A DNA stretch of 61,192 bases from an uncultured Pseudomonadota bacterium (lineage in GTDB: Bacteria > SAR324 > NAC60-12), in NCBI GenBank assembly GCA_913020725.1, contig CAJWCD010000004.1:1-61192 (forward strand). The letters run 5' to 3'. How positions within the stretch are numbered: the first letter of the stretch is position 1; each line of letters opens with the position of its first letter. Below, in pieces: positions 9,908 to 61,192 of this stretch. The notes under the pieces were generated by a model, which worked only from the letters and a program-made list of their open reading frames with translations, had not been told where the DNA came from and made no database searches. Both the position numbers and the translations under genes were made by a program.

Positions 9908-10227
9908 GTGTGCTGCGAACCGAGTTGCAGTCCCACCACTCCGGCGATGATGAGGGAGATCGAAGCCAGCTTCAGCACTGTGAAAGGTTCCTTGAACCAC
10001 CAAAAGCCAATGATCGTGACCAAGGCGGTGCCGAACCCGGACCAGATGGCGTAGGCCACGCTGACATCAATCTGCTTGAGCGCAAATGTAAGCAGCATCA
10101 AACTTATCAGGTAAAACACCACGATTCCCACGGACGGGCCCAGCTTGGTGAAGCCGTCGGAGAGTTTCATCGAGATGGTTCCGGCCACCTCAAAACAAAT
10201 TGCGATCACAAGATAAAGCCAAGGCAT
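9904..10227 (-). CDS. SMR family small multidrug efflux transporter (EmrE-like)
   Basis: 107 aa with four TM helices. Has a membrane-embedded Glu in FEVAGTISMK and an AYAIWSGFG motif, as in EmrE. Confidence 0.9.
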   Translation of the reverse strand: MPWLYLVIAICFEVAGTISMKLSDGFTKLGPSVGIVVFYLISLMLLTFALKQIDVSVAYAIWSGFGTALVTIIGFWWFKEPFTVLKLASISLIIAGVVGLQLGSQHT

Positions 10228-10257
10228 CCTGAAACTCCGAAACAGTGGTAAAGCGGG

Positions 10258-11523
10258 TTAGTGAAGGAGTAGGTTTCTCACCGTAGCGGCGATTTGGGTC
10301 GTCCACGCTTGTCCTGCCAGCACCGCTGCTGGCGGAAGCGAGCGGATCAGTTGGGTGTAAGGTAGCTGGGGGTCTCGATTCCTGCTTGCTTCCAGCGCCG
10401 TGCGGAAGGCTTCCGGGAGCGCGCTGGCAAAGCGTTCGACTTCCTGAAGCTCAGCTTGCAAAATCGGCCATTGGGACTGGAGCCAGCGATCTTTTGGAGC
10501 ATAGGACTCGTCGCGGCTAAGCACGGCATCAAGTTGGCGGATGCGCTCTTTCAGGTTGTCGCATACTGTTTCGCGTCCGGCGGCATAGACCGTTCGCAAG
10601 GCATTGGACGCAGCAAAAGGCATCCGCACCAACTCGTACCAATGCAGCAGCACAATCAACTGGGCGCAGTACTCGACTTGGCTACCGACAATCCGTCGCA
10701 AATTGCGGGGACGGTTGTCTGGATAAGGCGTGAAACCTGTGCGGTTTGCATCAGTAGGATTGAGTCCGCGCAGGAGCCGCCGCGAGCAGCGCCCACCCGC
10801 CGGGGTGAAGGTTCCATATTCTGCCTGCAACGGTCCAAGCAGGCTGTTGTTGCCGCCAATGAACAGGCGTTTGCAGTCGAGGAACAATCCGGATTCGACG
10901 TCTCCCAGCAGTGTTCCGGTGGCCTTGTCACCGTGAGCCGTGAAGTTGAAGTGAATGGTTCCACTACCCACCTCGGTGAAATGTCCCAATTCCGGGCCAT
11001 TGCCTCCGGAGATCAACAGGTCACAGAGGTTGCTGTTGCTGCCCAGCGTGACCCACGGAAAGAGGATCGTCATTTTCGTGTCGGTGTGCTGCGCGGTGGA
11101 AGCGTCTTCTTCGTAGAGCGATCCCTTCCGGACTCGAAAACCGTAGCCCGTAGTGAAATCGTTGAGCTGCGTTTCCTTGCCCAAGAACACACAGTCCTCC
11201 GCCACTCCGGAGCCAAGATCGCTGTGCGGCCCCACCGTTGTACGACAGAGGGTGACGGGTCCCAAACTGCCGACCACGGCTCCGTCACCGACCTCCGCAT
11301 CCTCAAGGGTCGCAGGGCCACACAATCCGATTTCCACCTGTGCGCCAATGGTCGTTTTTACTCCAGAAATTCGGGTTCCGGGGTGGAGCGTGGCCGTTGC
11401 CGAGATGCGTTCCAACACCACATCGGTTGCAATGTGGACTGCCTCTGAGTCCGGAAGCACCACACCCCGCTCCACAAGGGTCTGGAGTTGAATGGGTGTA
11501 TAGTAAATAGGTTGCTTCATCAT
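10258..11523 (-). CDS. hexapeptide-repeat (left-handed beta-helix) protein, function unknown
   Basis: Long frame 10258..11895 trimmed to the ATG-ATG at 11523, just after the hemD stop. The N-terminal half is rich in [LIV]-G-x-x-x-x repeats (IGAQVEIG, VGDGAVVG, VGPHSDLG). The C-terminal half is helical. Confidence 0.65.
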   Translation of the reverse strand: MMKQPIYYTPIQLQTLVERGVVLPDSEAVHIATDVVLERISATATLHPGTRISGVKTTIGAQVEIGLCGPATLEDAEVGDGAVVGSLGPVTLCRTTVGPHSDLGSGVAEDCVFLGKETQLNDFTTGYGFRVRKGSLYEEDASTAQHTDTKMTILFPWVTLGSNSNLCDLLISGGNGPELGHFTEVGSGTIHFNFTAHGDKATGTLLGDVESGLFLDCKRLFIGGNNSLLGPLQAEYGTFTPAGGRCSRRLLRGLNPTDANRTGFTPYPDNRPRNLRRIVGSQVEYCAQLIVLLHWYELVRMPFAASNALRTVYAAGRETVCDNLKERIRQLDAVLSRDESYAPKDRWLQSQWPILQAELQEVERFASALPEAFRTALEASRNRDPQLPYTQLIRSLPPAAVLAGQAWTTQIAATVRNLLLH

Positions 11524-11534
11524 CGCCTCCCTTG

Positions 11535-12335
11535 TTATGACGGCACGGTCATCGCTTGGACAAGTCCTGCAAGGGTTTGCTCGGATGCAGTCACCGTCAC
11601 ACAAAACCCGTGTTCGTGCAAGGCTTGACGGGTGGTGGGACCAATGCAGGCCACGGCGGTTTTGAGTTCGGCAAGCACGACTTGGGGAGTGGTCAGTTTC
11701 ACAAAATTGTTGACTGCCGAGGGGCTGCAAAACGTCAGCCAGTCCAACCGTCCAGACACCACCAGTTTCGTCAGAAAAGCTGGAGGAATTGGCGGACAAC
11801 CTGTTTCGTAAACCGGAGTCTGGATCACTTCTGCGCCTTGCTCTCGCAAGGACGCAGAAAGCAACTCGCGGGGTTGCTGCGCTCCGGGCATCCAAAACCG
11901 CTGCCCATGCAACTCCCGCTTGGAAAAACTGGCGACCAACCCCTCAGAACTGGCCTCGTCGGGTACGAGTTCCACCGTCCAGCCAAGCTCACGAAGCGCA
12001 GTCGCTGTGGTCTTGCCGATGCATGCTATCTGCAAATGCCGCAGTGCAGAGCATTCCACTTGCAGCGTCTTCAATCGTCGCACTAGCAGCCGCACCGCAT
12101 TCCGGCTTGTGAACACCAACCAATCCAAGTGGGGGAGTTCATTTTGAACCACTTGATCAAACGCACCCCACGATTTGACTGGTGCGATCTGGAAGGTCGG
12201 AAGCAGATAAACAAGCGCCCCGTGGTTCACCAGCAACCGACTCAGCCGAGGATCATCCTCCTCCGGGCGAGTGACCAGCACAGACTTTCTGTGCAGTTCT
12301 CCGGAAGCAGCGGACGATGCGGATGCGCCGCTCAT
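11535..12335 (-). CDS. hemD: uroporphyrinogen-III synthase
   Basis: VLVTRPEEDD...L, DWLVFTSRNAV and DWLTFCSPSAV duplicated half-domain signatures of the HEM4 family. ATGA overlap with the upstream gene. Confidence 0.85.
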   Translation of the reverse strand: MSGASASSAASGELHRKSVLVTRPEEDDPRLSRLLVNHGALVYLLPTFQIAPVKSWGAFDQVVQNELPHLDWLVFTSRNAVRLLVRRLKTLQVECSALRHLQIACIGKTTATALRELGWTVELVPDEASSEGLVASFSKRELHGQRFWMPGAQQPRELLSASLREQGAEVIQTPVYETGCPPIPPAFLTKLVVSGRLDWLTFCSPSAVNNFVKLTTPQVVLAELKTAVACIGPTTRQALHEHGFCVTVTASEQTLAGLVQAMTVPS

Positions 12336-55256: not shown

Positions 55257-56267
55257 TCAGTCCGGAAGCCCTGTGGCAATGACGGTGACAGTGATCTGGT
55301 CGGAAACATCCTCGGAGAAAGACGCACCCCAGATCAGGTTGACGTCCTCATCGGCCAATTCCGCGATCTTCGTCATCGCATCGTTGATCTCTAGTGCGCT
55401 GGTATCGCGTGGCCCCACCACATGCACCAGAATCCCTCGTGCGCCCCGGATGTCCTGATTGCCCATCAGCGAACTGTGCATGGCATTGTGGACGGCGCGT
55501 TCCAGTCGGTCTTGTCCGGAAGCAGTGCCACGTCCAATCACGGCTCGGCCCATGTTCTCCATGATCGTCTGCACGTCGGCGAAATCGACGTTGATGTCGC
55601 CCACCCCATTCAGCAAATCCGTGATCCCTTGGATGGCGTTGATGAGGACCGAATCCACCATGTGGAACGCCTCCAGCAGACTGGTCGTCTGAGTTGAAGC
55701 ATCCTGAAGCTTATCATTGGGGATGACGAGCAGGGTGTCAGTGTGCTGTCGCAGTTCCTCCACCCCCTCAAGGGCGACCTGCATGCGGCGCTTGCCCTCA
55801 AACGAAAACGGCAGCGTGACCACCCCCACAGTGAGAATCTGCCGGGCCTTGGCGATCCGGGCCACCACCGGGGCAGCTCCGGTTCCGGTGCCCCCGCCCA
55901 TGCCTGCTGCAATGAACACCATGTGTGCTCCAGCCAATGCCTGTTCAATCTCGCTTGCGGTCTCTTCGGCAGCGTTTGTGCCCACTTCCGGACGTGCCCC
56001 GGCCCCCAACCCACGAGTCATGTCCTTTCCCAACTCGATCTTGTGGTCCGCCTTGTTGCGCTGGAGCGCCTTGAGGTCCGTGTTGCAGATCACCATCTCG
56101 ACTTGGCGGATGCCCACGTCCACCATCTTGGTGACCACGTTGCCCCCAGCACCTCCGGCCCCAAAAACCTTGATATTGGGAATGAACGCCTCTTGCACCG
56201 AGAGAAACGCCCGAGATTTCGGCTCGTCGGTGCTGAGGCCAGGACTTGTCATTGCAGGGTCAATCAT
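55257..56267 (-). CDS. ftsZ: FtsZ-family tubulin-like GTPase lacking the C-terminal linker and tail
   Basis: IKVFGAGGAGGN, GLGAGARPEVG, AAGMGGGTGTGAAPVVA and NVDFADV (T7 loop). Ends ...VTVIATGLPD-stop. 336 aa. Confidence 0.9.
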   Translation of the reverse strand: MIDPAMTSPGLSTDEPKSRAFLSVQEAFIPNIKVFGAGGAGGNVVTKMVDVGIRQVEMVICNTDLKALQRNKADHKIELGKDMTRGLGAGARPEVGTNAAEETASEIEQALAGAHMVFIAAGMGGGTGTGAAPVVARIAKARQILTVGVVTLPFSFEGKRRMQVALEGVEELRQHTDTLLVIPNDKLQDASTQTTSLLEAFHMVDSVLINAIQGITDLLNGVGDINVDFADVQTIMENMGRAVIGRGTASGQDRLERAVHNAMHSSLMGNQDIRGARGILVHVVGPRDTSALEINDAMTKIAELADEDVNLIWGASFSEDVSDQITVTVIATGLPD

Positions 56268-56501: not shown

Positions 56502-56577
56502 GTCCCCATCGTCTAGAGGCCTAGGACATCGCCCTTTCACGGCGAGAACAGGGGTTCGACTCCCCTTGGGGACGCCA
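56502..56577 (+). tRNA. tRNA-Glu (anticodon UUC), CCA encoded
   Basis: Acceptor GTCCCCA/TGGGGAC, anticodon stem TCGCC/GGCGA with loop CTTTCAC, T-arm AGGGG-TTCGACT-CCCCT. Very close to the canonical bacterial tRNA-Glu. Confidence 0.95.
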
Positions 56578-56591
56578 CACTTCACGAAGCT

Positions 56592-56667
56592 GGGGACGTA
56601 GCTCAGCTGGGAGAGCGCAACGCTGGCAGCGTTGAGGTCAGGGGTTCGATCCCCCTCGTCTCCACCA
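56592..56667 (+). tRNA. tRNA-Ala (anticodon GGC), CCA encoded
   Basis: Acceptor GGGGACG/CGTCTCC with the G3:U70 Ala identity pair, anticodon stem CAACG/CGTTG with loop CTGGCAG, T-arm AGGGG-TTCGATC-CCCCT. Confidence 0.95.
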
Positions 56668-56740
56668 TTCCTCTCTGTAACATATAGAATATATTGAAGA
56701 AAATCTCAAGTCAGGGATTTTCAAGGGATAAAGAAGAGAC

Positions 56741-56764
56741 TTAGGTGTCTGTTTAGGTGTCTGT
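56741..56764 (+). repeat. perfect 12-bp tandem repeat TTAGGTGTCTGT x2, overlapping a palindrome
   Basis: Copies at 56741-56752 and 56753-56764. The palindrome GTCTGT-TG-ACAGAC spans 56759-56772. Lies about 20 nt upstream of the integrase ATG. Confidence 0.95.
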
Positions 56765-56784
56765 TGACAGACAGAAAGGTCTTT

Positions 56785-58554
56785 ATGAACTCCCTTCTTA
56801 CCAAGTCAGAGTACTCCTACCTCTTTGTTTCCTATATCCCCAAAGATTTGAAAAACCACTTTGGGGGTAGAATCAAATTCAGAGTTTCCCTCAAATCTGG
56901 TATATATTCAGAATCTAGAAGACTGTCACAGTCACTTAAGGTTGTGATGGATAGAATCTATGGAGAGGTCAGAGAAGGTATGAAATCAAATCTTACCCTT
57001 GATGATGTCAAGGATATACTCAGGAAAGAGATTAGAAGGTCACAGTCCCATTCTAATTACTTTTCCTATCTTGGAGTTGATAGAAGAAATGAAACTTCAA
57101 TAGAGGAGGGACTCAAACAATTGGAGGACGAAGAGAACGAGTTAAGGAGTAGGAAGAAATCAGATTTTGACTCTGAAGTTGAAACAATTCTGAGAAAAGA
57201 GGGATTCAAGATGGAAAAGGATTCCCTCTATTTCAAAAGACTGTTTAGACAACTCAAAGAGAATCTAATTGAAGTCAAATACAGAACTATCAAACGAAAA
57301 AGAGAACTGGTCTTAGGTGAGAAGAAGTCTGAATGGGATTTAGTTGATGATTTAATGGATGAGGTGAAAGAAGAAATAGTCAAAGGTGTCATTAAATCAA
57401 TCCCAGAATCAGAGAAGGAATTGGAATCCCCCTTGTTAAGTGAGGTGAGAGAAAAATTCATTGATAGTAGAAGACAAATGGAGTTAGTTGAAAAAACTGT
57501 CTCAGAGTATGGATATTACTTGAATGAAATGATGGAAGTCATTGAAGACAAACCCATTCAAGAAGTTACTCATTCAGATGGAAGACGATATGTGGATACT
57601 CTCAGTCAACTCCCTGTAAATAGAGATAAGAATCAAAAATACAGAGAGAAGACCATCCTAGAAATTTTGAAGATGAAAGGGGTAAAACCTCAGAATCCTC
57701 AGAATGTAAACAAGAAACTTGGACGGATTTCAACCTTCTGGAAATGGGTAGGAGATAAATATCCTGATTATGTGAAAGAACAGGTATTCAAAGGGAAAGA
57801 ACTAACTACTACCAAGTCCATTAAGAGAAAAGAAGAGAGATTTCCTTTCACTAATAATGAGGTCAAAGAAATCTTTAATCCCCATAATTACTTGTTCTAC
57901 ACAGTACAGATGAGTACAGGTGGAGAAGTAATGAATTATCATTATCATTCTGTAAGAACTCATCACTTACCCTATTACTGGGTTCCTTTGATTGGAGTTT
58001 TTTCAGGAATGAGACTTGATGAAATCTGTCAGTTGAGAATCCAAGATGTTTACAAGGAAGGAAAACATTGGGTAATGAATATCCGTGAATCAGAAGACAC
58101 CAAGATTAAAACCCAATCTTCTGAGAGGATCATCCCCGTACACTCCCAACTGATAAAACTTGGTTTTCATGAATATGTCAAAACCCTCAAGGATTTGGGA
58201 AAGGATAGGGTTTTTTGGGAATTGAAGAAGACCAGAGATGGATACTCAAAACACATTGGAAGATTTTTCAACGAAAAGTATCTGAAGAAACTTGGTATCC
58301 ACCTTCCACGAAAGAAGGTCTTCCACAGTTTCCGACATACCGTAGATGGATTACTCCAATACAAGGGTGTGAGGAAAGAATTGATTGAGGGGTTTATGGG
58401 TCACAGTCACGGTTCTATGTCACTTGATAGATATGGAGATAGATTTTCTACAGATGTTCTTTGGAAAGAATGTATTAAGAAGATTTCGTATGATGGAGTT
58501 AAATGGGATGATTTGAAGATTGATTGGAAACAACGAATCAGACCTGAGAAATAA
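56785..58554 (+). CDS. tyrosine integrase (phage integrase family) with long charged insertion
   Basis: ATG at 56785 (AAAGG RBS; the track starts at TTG 56764). N-terminal arm-type domain YLFVSYIPKDLKNHFGGRIKFRVSLKS. Catalytic GMRLDEICQL (Arg), HSFRHT (HxxR) and GHSHGSMSLDRYG (His...Tyr). Confidence 0.9.
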   Translation: MNSLLTKSEYSYLFVSYIPKDLKNHFGGRIKFRVSLKSGIYSESRRLSQSLKVVMDRIYGEVREGMKSNLTLDDVKDILRKEIRRSQSHSNYFSYLGVDRRNETSIEEGLKQLEDEENELRSRKKSDFDSEVETILRKEGFKMEKDSLYFKRLFRQLKENLIEVKYRTIKRKRELVLGEKKSEWDLVDDLMDEVKEEIVKGVIKSIPESEKELESPLLSEVREKFIDSRRQMELVEKTVSEYGYYLNEMMEVIEDKPIQEVTHSDGRRYVDTLSQLPVNRDKNQKYREKTILEILKMKGVKPQNPQNVNKKLGRISTFWKWVGDKYPDYVKEQVFKGKELTTTKSIKRKEERFPFTNNEVKEIFNPHNYLFYTVQMSTGGEVMNYHYHSVRTHHLPYYWVPLIGVFSGMRLDEICQLRIQDVYKEGKHWVMNIRESEDTKIKTQSSERIIPVHSQLIKLGFHEYVKTLKDLGKDRVFWELKKTRDGYSKHIGRFFNEKYLKKLGIHLPRKKVFHSFRHTVDGLLQYKGVRKELIEGFMGHSHGSMSLDRYGDRFSTDVLWKECIKKISYDGVKWDDLKIDWKQRIRPEK

Positions 58555-58569
58555 AATGAATGTCCATAA

Positions 58570-58695
58570 AACAATAGGGAAAATCTCTTAAAAGGAAAAT
58601 CTCTGTCCTATCGGAAAATATCAGAAGTCTTGAAATCAGATTATGGTCACAAGGTTTCACATGATACGGTGGGAAGGATATTGTCGGGGGGATGA
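58570..58695 (+). pseudogene. start-less 41-codon frame encoding a helix-turn-helix (possible gene remnant or non-canonical small ORF)
   Basis: NNRENLLKGKSLSYRKISEVLKSDYGHKVSHDTVGRILSGG-stop. No ATG/GTG/TTG lies upstream of the HTH. The TGA overlaps the next ATG (ATGA). Confidence 0.25.
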
Positions 58696-59105
58696 AAATG
58701 ACAGGAAAAGAGAGGGGAGACTATATCAGGGAACTCCTGTTCACTTTGACTTCAAGAGAAGAAAAAGTATTAAGACGGTATTTTGGAATACAGGAATTAG
58801 AAAGACAAACACTTGAAGAGATAGTGAAAGATGATGATGTTTCAAGTGGTCAAACAAGAAGGACAAAAAACAGGGGAGTGAGAGAATTCAGGAACCGAGT
58901 CATTCATGTTAGAGAGATACTAAGGGACAATCAACAAGGGGAGTTTTTTAATGAAAAGGAAGACCATATAGGAACTTGTGATAAACTCAAAGAATATGTT
59001 GAAAGTGTCAATCCAGACCTTGTTCATGAAGACCTTCCCTATCATCACTCAAAGTTTCTGGACGAGTTCATGTTGATTTTGATTGATGGAGTGGATTGGA
59101 GTTAG
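58692..59105 (+). CDS. sigma70 region-4-only protein (HTH) with unknown C-terminal extension
   Basis: 137 aa. Residues 18-67 LTSREEKVLRRYFGIQELERQTLEEIVKDDDVSSGQTRRTKNRGVREFRN align gap-free to RpoD region 4.2 ([49 protein letters not shown], from memory). Confidence 0.8.
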   Translation: MKMTGKERGDYIRELLFTLTSREEKVLRRYFGIQELERQTLEEIVKDDDVSSGQTRRTKNRGVREFRNRVIHVREILRDNQQGEFFNEKEDHIGTCDKLKEYVESVNPDLVHEDLPYHHSKFLDEFMLILIDGVDWS

Positions 59106-59798: not shown

Positions 59799-59820
59799 CC
59801 CACCAACACCCCACCAACAC
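59799..59820 (+). repeat. perfect 11-bp tandem repeat CCCACCAACAC x2 (minus strand GTGTTGGTGGG)
   Basis: Copies at 59799-59809 and 59810-59820, ending 15 nt before the ATG of the 434-aa ORF. Confidence 0.95.
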
Positions 59821-59835
59821 GGAACGAAGAATACA

Positions 59836-61140
59836 ATGTTTTCAATTCCTGAAATCCTGTTGACGGACACATTCAGAACGATAGTCCGTAGTGACATTCA
59901 GTTCGGGGAAATAAAACACAGGTCTACTTTAAAGAGACACCGTAAAATCACTGATGGGATGATACAGTTGATTGTCAACACCTGTGACAAGTTTCAAAAT
60001 CATCAAGATTACCCCATCTGGAACTACGTCAAATTGACAAGAGACTATCAAAAATCATTGTTCCCCGAAGGATACAATGACTTTCAAGGTGTTCTCTCAA
60101 AGAATGGATTTGTGATAAATCATTCTTATTCTTTTCAGGTGGGAAAAAACAAAGGTAAGACCAAATCGGTGATGATCCCATTCGACAAGATCGAAACCTG
60201 TGAGAAGTATCTACGGGAGATTAATCGGTCAAGATTGAATGGTGATGTCTTTGTTGACTGGAACAATCCCATAACGGTTGATGGGGTTGAGTTACCGAAG
60301 AGAATAAAGGTGGATACAAGGACAATGTATGACTTTTCCAACCGTATCAAGGACTACAGTGAAAGACTTTATAATAATCTAAACTTACAATTGAGACTTT
60401 CTGAAATGGATGATGAAGGGTTCTTGATCCAGAATTACAGTAAATCTGATTTCGGTAGGATTATCGGTCAAGGGGTTTCGTCCATTCAGTTTACACCTAA
60501 AATCATTCTCAATCAAATCCTGAAGGGTTGTTTTGATCTGGATGTCAATACTTGTGTCTACTCCATTCTTCCTGTCATCTACAAGAGAATGACCGGAAAA
60601 ACCCCTAGAACTGTCTGTATTGAAAGATACGTCCAAGACAAGACAATCATAAGGGAAGACCTTTCTCGTTCACTGGGGGTGGGTTTGGATAGGGTTAAGG
60701 AGTGTTTCACCAGTATGTCCTTTGGAATGAGAGACAATACCAGTTCCTACTTTGTGAATGACCGGATGGTTACACCCACACTTGTTGAAATCCTTGGTAG
60801 TGTGGAAAAGTCAGTTAGGTTCAGGGAACATCCATTCGTCAAGGGTCTATGGGATGAAATGAGGATACTCTTTTCTGGACTGTCAAAAGTCTCAAAGGGG
60901 AAAATACCCATTAAAGGGTTGAGAAGTCCTCAAAGGGTTTCTTATCTGTTTCAACAGGAAGAAGTGAAGGTGTTGAAGGAAATGATAAGGTTTGTTGGTC
61001 ATGACTTGATTTGTCCCAAACATGATTCAGTGATTCTGTTGAACCCGTTGAGTAATGACAGGATTGAGGAGTTACAGGAAATCATTCATGACAAGTTGGG
61101 TTACAGGATCACATTGTCACAAGAGATGATTGGTGGTTGA
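59836..61140 (+). CDS. 434-aa protein with family-A (Pol I / T7-like) polymerase motifs; putative minimal polymerase / replication protein
   Basis: Uninterrupted 1.3-kb frame. Motifs appear in order: SDFGR (204-208), SIQFTP (216-221), CFDLDVNTCVYSIL (232-245), RVKECFTSMSFG (286-297, K-x7-FG) and KHDSVIL (395-401). The function is an inference from these motifs only. Confidence 0.6.
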   Translation: MFSIPEILLTDTFRTIVRSDIQFGEIKHRSTLKRHRKITDGMIQLIVNTCDKFQNHQDYPIWNYVKLTRDYQKSLFPEGYNDFQGVLSKNGFVINHSYSFQVGKNKGKTKSVMIPFDKIETCEKYLREINRSRLNGDVFVDWNNPITVDGVELPKRIKVDTRTMYDFSNRIKDYSERLYNNLNLQLRLSEMDDEGFLIQNYSKSDFGRIIGQGVSSIQFTPKIILNQILKGCFDLDVNTCVYSILPVIYKRMTGKTPRTVCIERYVQDKTIIREDLSRSLGVGLDRVKECFTSMSFGMRDNTSSYFVNDRMVTPTLVEILGSVEKSVRFREHPFVKGLWDEMRILFSGLSKVSKGKIPIKGLRSPQRVSYLFQQEEVKVLKEMIRFVGHDLICPKHDSVILLNPLSNDRIEELQEIIHDKLGYRITLSQEMIGG

Positions 61141-61167
61141 GTAATGGTTTCTTTGATTGTCATTACT

Positions 61168-61192
61168 GGTGTCTGGTGGGTGTCTGGTGGGT
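61168..61192 (+). repeat. 11-bp tandem iterons GGTGTCTGGTG x2 plus the start of a third copy, truncated by the window edge
   Basis: Copies at 61168-61178 and 61179-61189, then GGT. Preceded by the hairpin AGTAATG-N14-CATTACT (61140-61167). Confidence 0.9.

Follow-up and report, generated by a model that had tools for sequence, protein, structure and literature searches.

A 434-aa protein encoded in the 61,192-nt stretch of DNA analysed here (the window) is a minimal family-A polymerase of the TV-Pol type (59836–61140, + strand, as are all features given below), and a low-GC integrative island of a SAR324-like marine bacterium carries its gene. We consider it likely (probability about 0.7) that this TV-Pol is the element's own replication enzyme, proposed to act as a primase-polymerase that starts replication. 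TV-Pols were defined by Iyer, Abhiman & Aravind (2008, Biol Direct 3:39; PMC2579912) and include the N-terminal domain of Sputnik V13, an ORF of Ma-LMM01 and proteins of bacterial islands. They were predicted in 2008 to be prim-pols and to represent the Pol I / T7 superfamily in a minimal and possibly ancestral shape, and mobile elements are thought to start the copying of their own DNA with them (PMC2579912). The sole relative tested biochemically is the atypical CcPol-MP of SCCmec, which has primase activity (PMC7581432, PMC10061031); for standalone TV-Pols the literature holds no biochemistry (PMC7581432). As TV-Pol was described in 2008, the present gene adds a member to a known, barely studied kind and the polymerase kind itself is not new; a first-pass annotation of this DNA had known of no such island replication module, a statement that TV-Pol and its CcPol-MP relative overturn. 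What the gene contributes is a compact 434-aa TV-Pol in a clear genetic setting.

Motifs, conservation and predicted fold

The gene was recognised as an ATG-to-stop ORF with homologues, and its assignment draws on conservation, a structure model and Foldseek. The translation carries S204-D-F-G-R208, S216-I-Q-F-T-P221, C232-F-D234-L-D236, R286-V-K288...F296-G297 and K395-H396-D397-S398 (the codon of residue n begins at 59836+3(n-1)), which confirmed the ORF, its length and the places of all five motifs as first annotated. The motif set exceeds chance because it is kept across divergent relatives. In a wide alignment of 124 relatives with 15–49% identity to the 434-aa protein, the only invariant columns were R208, D236, K288, E376 and D397, and G207, Q218, Y265, G297, Q373 and H396 were at least 90% conserved. 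The first-pass annotation proposed to check whether its listed residues are invariant; this held for K288, D236 and D397 and nearly so for G297 and H396, but position 296 is F or Y across the family and D234 is variable. Among 13 subfamily members (about 45% identity) the motifs were invariant except for D234, which is Glu in the other twelve, and in the wide alignment this position is E, D or K. Judged from the alignment, the catalytic Asp conserved in motif A is thus D236, not D234 as had been supposed, and S204, D205, F206, S216, P221, K395 and S398 are features of the subfamily only.

To relate these residues to known polymerases, profiles were compared by hhalign. Against E. coli Pol I the score was 38.9 (best of 30 shuffles, 24.7), in a register that pairs R208 with R668, Q218 with Q677, K288 with K758, F296-G297 with Y766-G767, Q373 with Q849 and H396-D397 with H881-D882. 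The alignment with MAP_030 of Ma-LMM01 was stronger (89% probability, E 2e-6, score 51.2; 30 shuffles ≤22.8). MAP_030 adjoins IS transposases, and because of these neighbours and its size we take it to be the published Ma-LMM01 TV-Pol. The comparison with T7 DNAP, as a single sequence, stayed at noise level. Conventional searches were negative: hmmscan of the protein against Pfam gave no family at E≤10, including PF00476 and PF00940, the two models proposed for a HMMER check, and HMMER searches of the ORF against NCBIfam, PHROGs and PADLOC gave no informative match, nor did those of distant relatives. Phmmer and hmmsearch against PDB sequences yielded nothing significant, the sole match of the profile being the Pol I 8jrb (E 0.37). 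A survey of relatives returned about 1000 representative clusters at 50% identity. The members that were checked had no match among Pfam, NCBIfam, PHROG and PADLOC models, and those few of the sampled members with a database name were all called 'hypothetical protein'. For the marine subfamily (14 clusters), no relative was found in the 185,579 species genomes scanned with the subfamily alignment.

The structure was modelled with AlphaFold2 on the 124-sequence alignment (pLDDT 93.1, pTM 0.91); this run replaced an earlier one on a shallow 13-sequence alignment, which had given a pLDDT of 63 and no Foldseek match with E<0.001. All 17 PDB matches of the new model at E≤1e-3 were family-A DNA polymerases (T7 DNAP at 1.5e-5, DpoZ, Aquifex Pol I, Pol theta, Bst, Pol nu and others; probability 1.0), with apPOL, Klentaq and Klenow ranking just under this set, so that the combined AlphaFold and Foldseek check suggested earlier bore out the proposed family. 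The model supports a family-A palm/fingers/thumb fold in which motifs A, B and C are present. Together with conservation and the hhalign register, it also sustains the original view that this is a right-hand polymerase from the Pol I / T7 superfamily, highly divergent and lacking an exonuclease: no Pfam match to an exonuclease domain was found in the 434-aa protein, and both the 3'-5' and the 5'-3' activity domains are absent. Three other folds were considered and rejected, namely an AEP primase (no AEP motifs or Pfam matches), a family-B polymerase (Foldseek E≥0.03) and a winged-helix Rep as the main fold.

Among viral structures in BFVD, the top matches were uncharacterised phage proteins (4e-15, TMq 0.63), followed by helicase fusions of virophages and giant viruses, among them the Zamilon 'DNA replication protein' V6BPG7 (2.8e-8) and a Qinghai Lake virophage 'helicase/primase/polymerase' (3e-6). 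Virophage polymerase-helicase fusions of the Zamilon and Sputnik V13 type outscored canonical phage PolA. These structural matches to V13-type proteins and the Ma-LMM01 profile match support membership of the TV-Pol family. The core elements of TV-Pols were found in the model as a hairpin of residues 201–211 with R208, a strand (233–238) that has D236 at its end, and the hairpin 391–401 with D397.

The polymerase core begins at about residue 160 and comprises about 275 aa, and ahead of it a distinct N-terminal domain takes up about 135 aa; the protein had been likened in size to a bare Klentaq domain, and its core is smaller than that. In the model the thumb is minimal, a predicted antiparallel helix pair (residues 161–170 and 174–189; 60316–60402) that fits the coiled-coil thumb described for TV-Pols (PMC2579912). 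It is followed by the beta-hairpin with G207-R208 of the T/DxxGR motif and then by L-Q218-x-x-P-K, which is NLQNIP-like (60421–60510; conservation, hhalign and model strands 196–198, 201–203 and 209–211). Position 225 is Leu in the 434-aa protein; the family consensus is Arg, which aligns with Pol I R690. The motif A strand (residues 232–238; 60529–60549) has the invariant D236 at its end in the alignment and runs from 233 to 238 in the model before passing into a helix. Motif B, the O-helix (residues 284–298; 60685–60729), holds K288-x7-F296-G297, assigned from the alignment and from the hhalign pairing with Pol I. Further on, Q373-x-x-E376 (60952–60963) places Q373 at the QGxAAD motif of Pol I by hhalign. 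Q-x-x-E is also present in the Ma-LMM01 ORF, and the invariant E376 is, on alignment evidence, a hallmark of this polymerase's family alone. Motif C forms a hairpin (residues 391–401; 61006–61038) with H396-D397, which was located by alignment and hhalign and has strands 391–394 and 398–401 in the model.

Several positions bear on whether the protein could instead be a T7-like single-subunit RNA polymerase or RNA primase, using NTPs for transcription of the element or for RNA primers. At D236+5, the position of the Pol I steric-gate Glu E710, the family has H, V or S and the 434-aa protein has Val; the missing Glu had been noted at first reading. Position 292, equivalent to Pol I F762, is Thr and neither Phe nor Tyr, the consensus past the hairpin (G-R-x-Y) resembles RGRVY of T7 RNAP, and motif C of this protein reads H-D-S. 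The likeness of HDS to T7 RNAP, which along with the missing Glu had kept DNA versus RNA specificity from being called, did not survive the alignment, as the family has G, A, C or S at position 398. Moreover, T7 RNA polymerase (1cez) reached a Foldseek E of only 0.71 against the 17 DNA polymerases at E≤1e-3, hhalign to T7 RNAP, as a single sequence, stayed at noise level (1% probability over 76 columns), and CcPol-MP works with dNTPs (PMC7581432). Unlike T7-like RNA polymerases (PF00940), the protein has no Pfam match to that family, and its 434 aa leave no room for a promoter-binding N-terminal domain or a specificity loop. We therefore regard an RNA polymerase as very unlikely. The choice of the 434-aa TV-Pol between dNTPs and NTPs is something we infer.

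Island, relatives and flanking repeats

At about position 56700 the GC content falls from 57% to 39%. The left boundary of the island is marked by a tRNA-Ala(GGC) gene found by ARAGORN (56592–56667), with the GC shift and the integrase immediately downstream, and this tRNA gene is probably the integration target. The integrase is of the tyrosine type (56764–58554; PF00589 E 6.6e-12, phrog_1 E 1e-26). The window extends 52 nt past the polymerase stop codon and covers 4.5 kb of the island. One relative, L016, is 98% identical; downstream of its polymerase gene lies only a 61-aa ORF, which by eye looks ribbon-helix-helix-like.

The closest relatives lie on circular marine elements of ~12,558 bp (12.6 kb), which were assembled independently in permuted form. 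The 12.6-kb circle also carries ParA and a small integrase, and no replication gene besides the polymerase was recognisable on the marine circles. A conserved 215-aa gene follows the polymerase gene there; it was considered as a RepA-type initiator, but BLASTP against Polaromonas RepA showed no similarity and Pfam and PHROGs gave nothing. Plasmid proteins of 670 and 518 aa were considered as helicases, and no match was found for them. On a Polaromonas plasmid the polymerase gene lies directly upstream of repA. Profile matches also include fusions to D5_N / DUF5906 / VapE helicase modules, and a recurrent linkage of the family to integrases, plasmids and D5-type helicase domains is evident from these contexts.

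In distant members the polymerase gene belongs to a conserved island module adjoining integrases, with R-M genes as cargo. Some relatives adjoin type I R-M systems and some PolA-SSB pairs contain vestigial Pol components (Rice 2023), which would suit a gene that the island carries as cargo, for a catalytically dead polymerase-like scaffold or for a non-replicative enzyme, such as one of defence or repair synthesis. Such a role appears extremely improbable to us: the residues expected for catalysis are all invariant, in the 124-sequence alignment and in the survey of ~1000 representative clusters, PADLOC gives no match, and small circles, which need a replication function, retain the gene. It is also the polymerase gene that forms the conserved integrase-proximal backbone, against which the R-M genes are the variable cargo.

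The gene is flanked by 11-nt repeats, first annotated as bracketing iterons. Repeats do exist on both sides, but they are minimal. Upstream, two tandem copies of CCCACCAACAC (59799–59820), 16 nt from the start codon, are candidate protein-binding sites; downstream, 2.3 copies of GGTGTCTGGTG (61168–61192), approximately the reverse complement of the upstream unit, run into the window end. L016 has the upstream repeats too and a single downstream copy, so that the downstream array is either not conserved or affected by assembly. The polymerase may use these repeats. Further repeats lie at 56741–56765. A promoter and terminator scan around the polymerase gene gave a count no better than that of shuffles.

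The N-terminal domain (residues 1–135; 59836–60240) was delimited by the secondary structure of the model and by the alignment limits of distant relatives, which align only from about residue 150–190 on. Residues 29–113 have the predicted topology H-beta-H-H-beta-beta and are predicted to resemble a winged helix. The domain may serve in DNA binding or origin recognition.

Proposed role in replication

Beside its thumb, the core has the template-contacting R208 on its hairpin and an RRM palm with the metal-binding D236 and D397, and its short fingers supply the O-helix K288 and F296-G297. In the mechanism that we propose, after excision of the island, or on the 12.6-kb circles, the TV-Pol would start DNA synthesis at the element origin and extend a short stretch, and the host replisome would then take over. 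De novo priming by the 434-aa TV-Pol is suggested by analogy with CcPol-MP and by the argument that TV-Pols displace prim-pols.

An enzyme that only extends primers would behave differently: it would elongate a 3'-OH from a host or transcript RNA primer or from a nick, much as host Pol I does when the leading strand of ColE1-type plasmids is first synthesised, with no de novo priming of its own. CcPol depends strictly on a primer when MP is missing (PMC7581432), the closest solved folds all belong to primer-dependent DNA polymerases, and no OB-fold partner resembling MP or SSB, and no helicase, was recognisable in the 4.5 kb of the island, in L016 or on the marine circles. On Polaromonas plasmids the polymerase gene is paired with a classical RepA initiator, and the polymerase there need not be the initiator. 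On the other side, relatives stand N-terminal to D5-type helicase modules in fusion proteins, in the usual place of an AEP or DnaG primase domain (argument of PMC2579912), and the marine circles carry no other candidate primase or initiator. Weighing these points, we consider a purely primer-dependent polymerase unlikely and retain the primase-polymerase reading.

Several observations count against the proposal as a whole. CcPol primes only with its OB-fold MP (PMC7581432), of which the surroundings of the 434-aa gene, L016 and the circles hold no recognisable counterpart; the Arg of the RxxxK motif is apparently absent, HMMER-level searches were negative and the Polaromonas plasmids have their classical RepA. 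Four residues before K288, at position 284, the family has V, I or E and the 434-aa protein has Leu, with the Arg of Pol I (R754) absent. A conserved [KR]269-x3-R273 is present in the helix preceding that of K288; the RxxxK of TV-Pols, placed by its authors in the first helix of a tri-helical HTH, was compared by description only.

A bolder version of the proposal, which we find doubtful, is that the TV-Pol subfamily is a self-sufficient, origin-specific replicase, in which the N-terminal domain would read the 11-nt repeats and the core would prime and extend without an SSB partner or an element helicase. If true, a single protein would define the replicon of the ~12.6-kb marine plasmids and of SAR324-type islands, and a third primase class would act as a plasmid Rep. 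The marine circles, with the polymerase as their sole recognisable replication gene, would be a tractable system for testing priming by a bare family-A core.

Comparison with known replication systems

With canonical family-A polymerases (Klenow/Klentaq, T7 gp5, Pol theta, apicoplast Pol) the protein shares the predicted palm/fingers/thumb fold and the motifs T/DxxGR, LQ-x-x-P, A, B (K-x7-[FY]-G), QG and C (HD) in the same order and at similar spacing. It differs from them in its core of ~275 aa versus ~400 or more, in lacking even a vestigial exonuclease domain, and in two shortened stretches, by about 10 residues from the LQ motif to motif A and by about 8 ahead of the O-helix. It also has no equivalents of R754, the steric-gate Glu and F762, possesses the additional invariant E376, and falls under the detection limit of Pfam PF00476.

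The CcPol-MP and Cch2 helicase system of SCCmec (Bebel et al. 2020; PolA-SSB primases, Rice 2023) is similar in that an exonuclease-less A-family polymerase is encoded in an integrative element next to a recombinase, with the initiation of element replication as its proposed task. Iyer et al. assigned CcPol to the TV-Pol group. CcPol, however, lies near Pol I and the CHEAP subfamily and can be recognised as PolA by sequence, whereas the 434-aa protein cannot. CcPol furthermore requires the small OB-fold MP and works with a same-operon helicase, and neither was detected near the 434-aa gene within the 4.5 kb of island.

AEP prim-pols (pRN1 ORF904, NrS-1, ICE prim-pols) have an unrelated catalytic domain, AEP versus family A. 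Their niche and predicted job are nevertheless the same, as one-protein primase-polymerases of small plasmids, islands and viruses, and they too are often fused to D5-type helicases.

The marine subfamily departs from the description of TV-Pols in its own N-terminal domain, predicted to be alpha/beta where TV-PolN is described as all-helical, in the apparently missing Arg of RxxxK at K288-4 in the 434-aa protein (a comparison by description) and in nearest relatives that lie on 12.6-kb circles, not in transposon-like units. Shared with TV-Pols are the standalone 400–600-aa class, the two-helix thumb, the beta-hairpin Arg, the two catalytic Asp residues, the short, probably HTH-type fingers with Lys and the missing nuclease domain, together with linkage to lambda-type integrases in R-M-rich islands and relatives fused to D5-like helicases.

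A polymerase gene in an integrative island

The ORF at 59836-61140 on the forward strand runs from ATG to stop in the window translation and encodes 434 aa. The first-pass annotation had claimed it as a candidate minimal family-A polymerase, and every motif that it listed was found in our translation at the same residues and nucleotides. GC content falls from 57% in the host region to 39% at ~56700, directly after tRNA-Glu(TTC) and tRNA-Ala(GGC) (within 56502-56800), and the low-GC segment, which includes the polymerase ORF, opens with the gene of a 596-aa tyrosine integrase (PF00589 and phrog_1). The polymerase gene is therefore part of an integrative island, the right-hand end of which lies beyond the window edge. 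The N-terminus of the integrase weakly resembles DUF6538. A 137-aa ORF (58692-59105, forward strand) with a sigma-70 region-4-like HTH (PF04545, E 7e-5; phrog_351, E 1e-7) is a probable island regulator; it also showed a weak PADLOC match to MzaA (E 3.5e-4). On the host side, FtsZ (55257-56267, reverse strand) is only 336 aa long, and its best matches were SAR324-cluster MAGs at 68-69% identity. This makes the source a rather distant SAR324-like lineage, which is absent from the set of 185,579 species genomes.

Two tandem pairs of 11-nt units, one at 59799-59820 and the other at 61168-61192, are candidates for protein binding; the window ends inside the second array. This downstream pair was not conserved in L016, a 98%-identical relative: comparing L016 1597-1700 with window 61140-61192, divergence began exactly at the repeat, and L016 carried a single GGTGTCTGGTG copy and then repeats of the GATTGACTAGTG type. 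As the window contig stops within the repeat where L016 diverges, the array is variable or the assembly was interrupted at this point. A second perfect tandem repeat (TTAGGTGTCTGT x2.1, 56741-56765) separates tRNA-Ala from the start of the integrase. Its core GGTGTCTG recurs in the repeats that follow the polymerase gene (61168-61192), and 4 of the 6 GGTGTCTG sites in the 61-kb window are located in the 4.5-kb island. These repeats may serve the integrase as arm sites or be recognised by a common regulator.

Conserved motifs and predicted fold

Sequence libraries did not recognise the polymerase: no significant match was obtained in Pfam (PF00476 and PF00940 included), PHROGs, NCBIfam, PADLOC or PDB sequences. 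When the family profile was aligned with E. coli Pol I by hhalign, 212 columns aligned with a score of 38.9 (E 2.9e-4), while the maximum among 30 shuffled Pol I controls was 24.7. The register paired R208 with R668, Q218 with Q677, K288 with K758, F296-G297 with Y766-G767, Q373 with Q849 and H396-D397 with H881-D882; Pol I R690 aligned with a family consensus Arg at 225, which is Leu in the window protein.

A word-indexed search returned only 14 relatives, all metagenomic and of ~45% identity, and in their alignment the listed motifs were invariant except for D234, which was Glu in all others. The full HMMER profile search, covering 1.84 billion representative proteins, gave 978 matches at E<=1e-3, of which 365 reached E<=1e-10, mostly proteins of 430-600 aa that matched only at profile positions ~190-432, the motif-bearing half of the polymerase. 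Across a wide alignment (124 sequences, 15-49% identical to the query) only R208, D236, K288, E376 and D397 were invariant, placing the catalytic motifs beyond chance; G207, Q218, Y265, G297, Q373 and H396 were conserved in at least 90%. The observed motif set thus stands, with one correction: D236, and not D234, is the catalytic Asp of motif A. The family consensus reads S-x-F-G-R-L-Y-G-x-G-L-x-N-L-Q-N-V-P-K-x-V-R-x-A-A-L in the hairpin/LQ region, C-Y-E-Y-D-I in motif A, K-x3-T-A-I-G-[FY]-G-A around K288, Y-Q-G-x-E around Q373-E376 (60952-60963) and L-L-x-H-D-G in motif C. E376, invariant family-wide and also present in the phage Ma-LMM01 ORF, is a family-specific, active-site-proximal residue, whereas Pol I has Ala at the matching position (QGxAAD). 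In the family alignment the polymerase lacks not only the steric-gate Glu, as already noticed, but also equivalents of F762 and R754; its substrates may be dNTPs or NTPs.

Structure prediction settled the matter. A model built from 13 sequences was poor (pLDDT 63); with the 124-sequence alignment, pLDDT was 93.1 and pTM 0.91. All 17 Foldseek matches of the latter model in the PDB at E<=1e-3 were family-A DNA polymerases, among them T7 gp5 (1.5e-5), DpoZ, Aquifex Pol I, Pol theta, Bst Pol I and Pol nu. Apicoplast Pol, Klentaq and Klenow scored slightly short of this cut-off; family-B enzymes scored E>=0.03 and T7 RNAP E 0.71. In the model, residues 1-135 form an N-terminal domain and residues 161-189 a thumb of two helices. 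Then come, in this order, the R208 hairpin, the motif A strand with D236 at its end, the O-helix that bears K288, a long helix on which both Q373 and E376 lie, and the motif C hairpin with H396-D397. The predicted H-beta-H-H-beta-beta topology of the N-terminal domain suggests a winged-helix DNA-binding domain. The model contains no exonuclease domain, in agreement with the first reading.

Relatives on circles, islands and plasmids

The closest relatives (P0007 and P0012) lie on contigs of different marine samples that are mutually circular permutations. Independent assemblies from Tara Oceans and other marine metagenomes (L001, L002 and L003) were circular permutations of one element, which implies a circle of ~12,558 bp with 33% GC. 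It carries the polymerase, a conserved 215-aa gene downstream of it, a ParA-like ATPase, a 189-aa integrase, an Asn-synthase-like PP-loop protein, a 670-aa unknown protein and many other unknowns; besides the polymerase, no recognisable replication gene was found in this gene content. The distant members P0175 and P0040 share an island backbone of DUF6641, a small integrase, two unknown genes and then the polymerase, which is convergent with a 306-365-aa integrase; the island cargo includes type I R-M systems.

Among isolates the family is rare: members occur in a single Desulfovibrio phage, which has two database records, and on two small plasmids of Polaromonas. On one of these, pW9NP1 (NZ_MG869627, 37-2497), a 538-aa member stands 10 nt upstream of repA (RepA_C), which suggests that polymerase and initiator form one operon. 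As the plasmid is only 7.2 kb long and its bacterium is in culture, this pair would lend itself to testing. The 538-aa protein is annotated as hypothetical. A 711-aa fusion of the polymerase domain to a DUF5906/VapE helicase (10001-12136) was found on L013, a 21.5-kb contig of 29% GC; faint Pox_A32 and DUF5754/DUF5872 matches suggest that this contig is a virophage or a polinton-like virus.

Function and relation to the TV-Pol family

Among predicted viral structures, the top matches were uncharacterised phage proteins (E 4e-15), followed by proteins 700-1000 aa long from virophages and giant viruses, with the matching domain fused to a helicase, including the Zamilon 'DNA replication protein' (E 2.8e-8) and the Qinghai Lake virophage 'helicase/primase/polymerase'; canonical phage PolA ranked below these fusions. 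The profile search also yielded members fused to helicase modules of the D5_N, DUF5906 and VapE types. The family is distributed on mobile elements, its catalytic residues are invariant, and in helicase fusions it takes the place of primase domains. On these grounds the polymerase most likely serves its element as an active enzyme of replication, probably a primase-polymerase. It would replicate its own element, probably by both priming and extending DNA. This large family lacks annotation, and with the small marine circles one could test cleanly if a family-A core primes when bare.

The structural and functional inference of the first-pass annotation is thus supported; its claim that no such module had been described is not, as the TV-Pol family was published in 2008 (PMC2579912). 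Iyer, Abhiman and Aravind defined TV-Pols there as proteins 400-600 aa long that occur in mobile elements of bacteria, in Sputnik (V13), in phage Ma-LMM01 and in SCCmec. Their thumb consists of two helices, their hairpin bears an Arg and their fingers are of HTH type; two Asp are present, and nucleases are absent. They are linked to D5 helicases or, in R-M-rich islands, to lambda-type integrases, resolvases or transposases, and were predicted to be primase-polymerases (PMC2579912). Scanning Ma-LMM01 with the family HMM found a single ORF, MAP_030 (506 aa), which adjoins two transposase genes. By hhalign it matched the family profile with 89% probability (E 2e-6, score 51.2; maximum of 30 shuffle controls 22.8) and every motif aligned, Q-x-x-E and H-D-G included; phmmer with MAP_030 as query weakly matched many family members. 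The sole biochemically studied relative is SCCmec CcPol, which together with the OB-fold protein MP primes DNA synthesis from dNTPs and has the helicase Cch2 as working partner; according to its authors, characterisation of any further TV-Pol is lacking (PMC7581432). The 2023 PolA reclassification leaves the TV-Pol-type group uncovered, and a 2024 review writes of 'PolA, also referred to as TV-Pol' in small viruses. The category has been in the literature since 2008, and the window polymerase is a new compact marine member of this known, essentially uncharacterised TV-Pol family.
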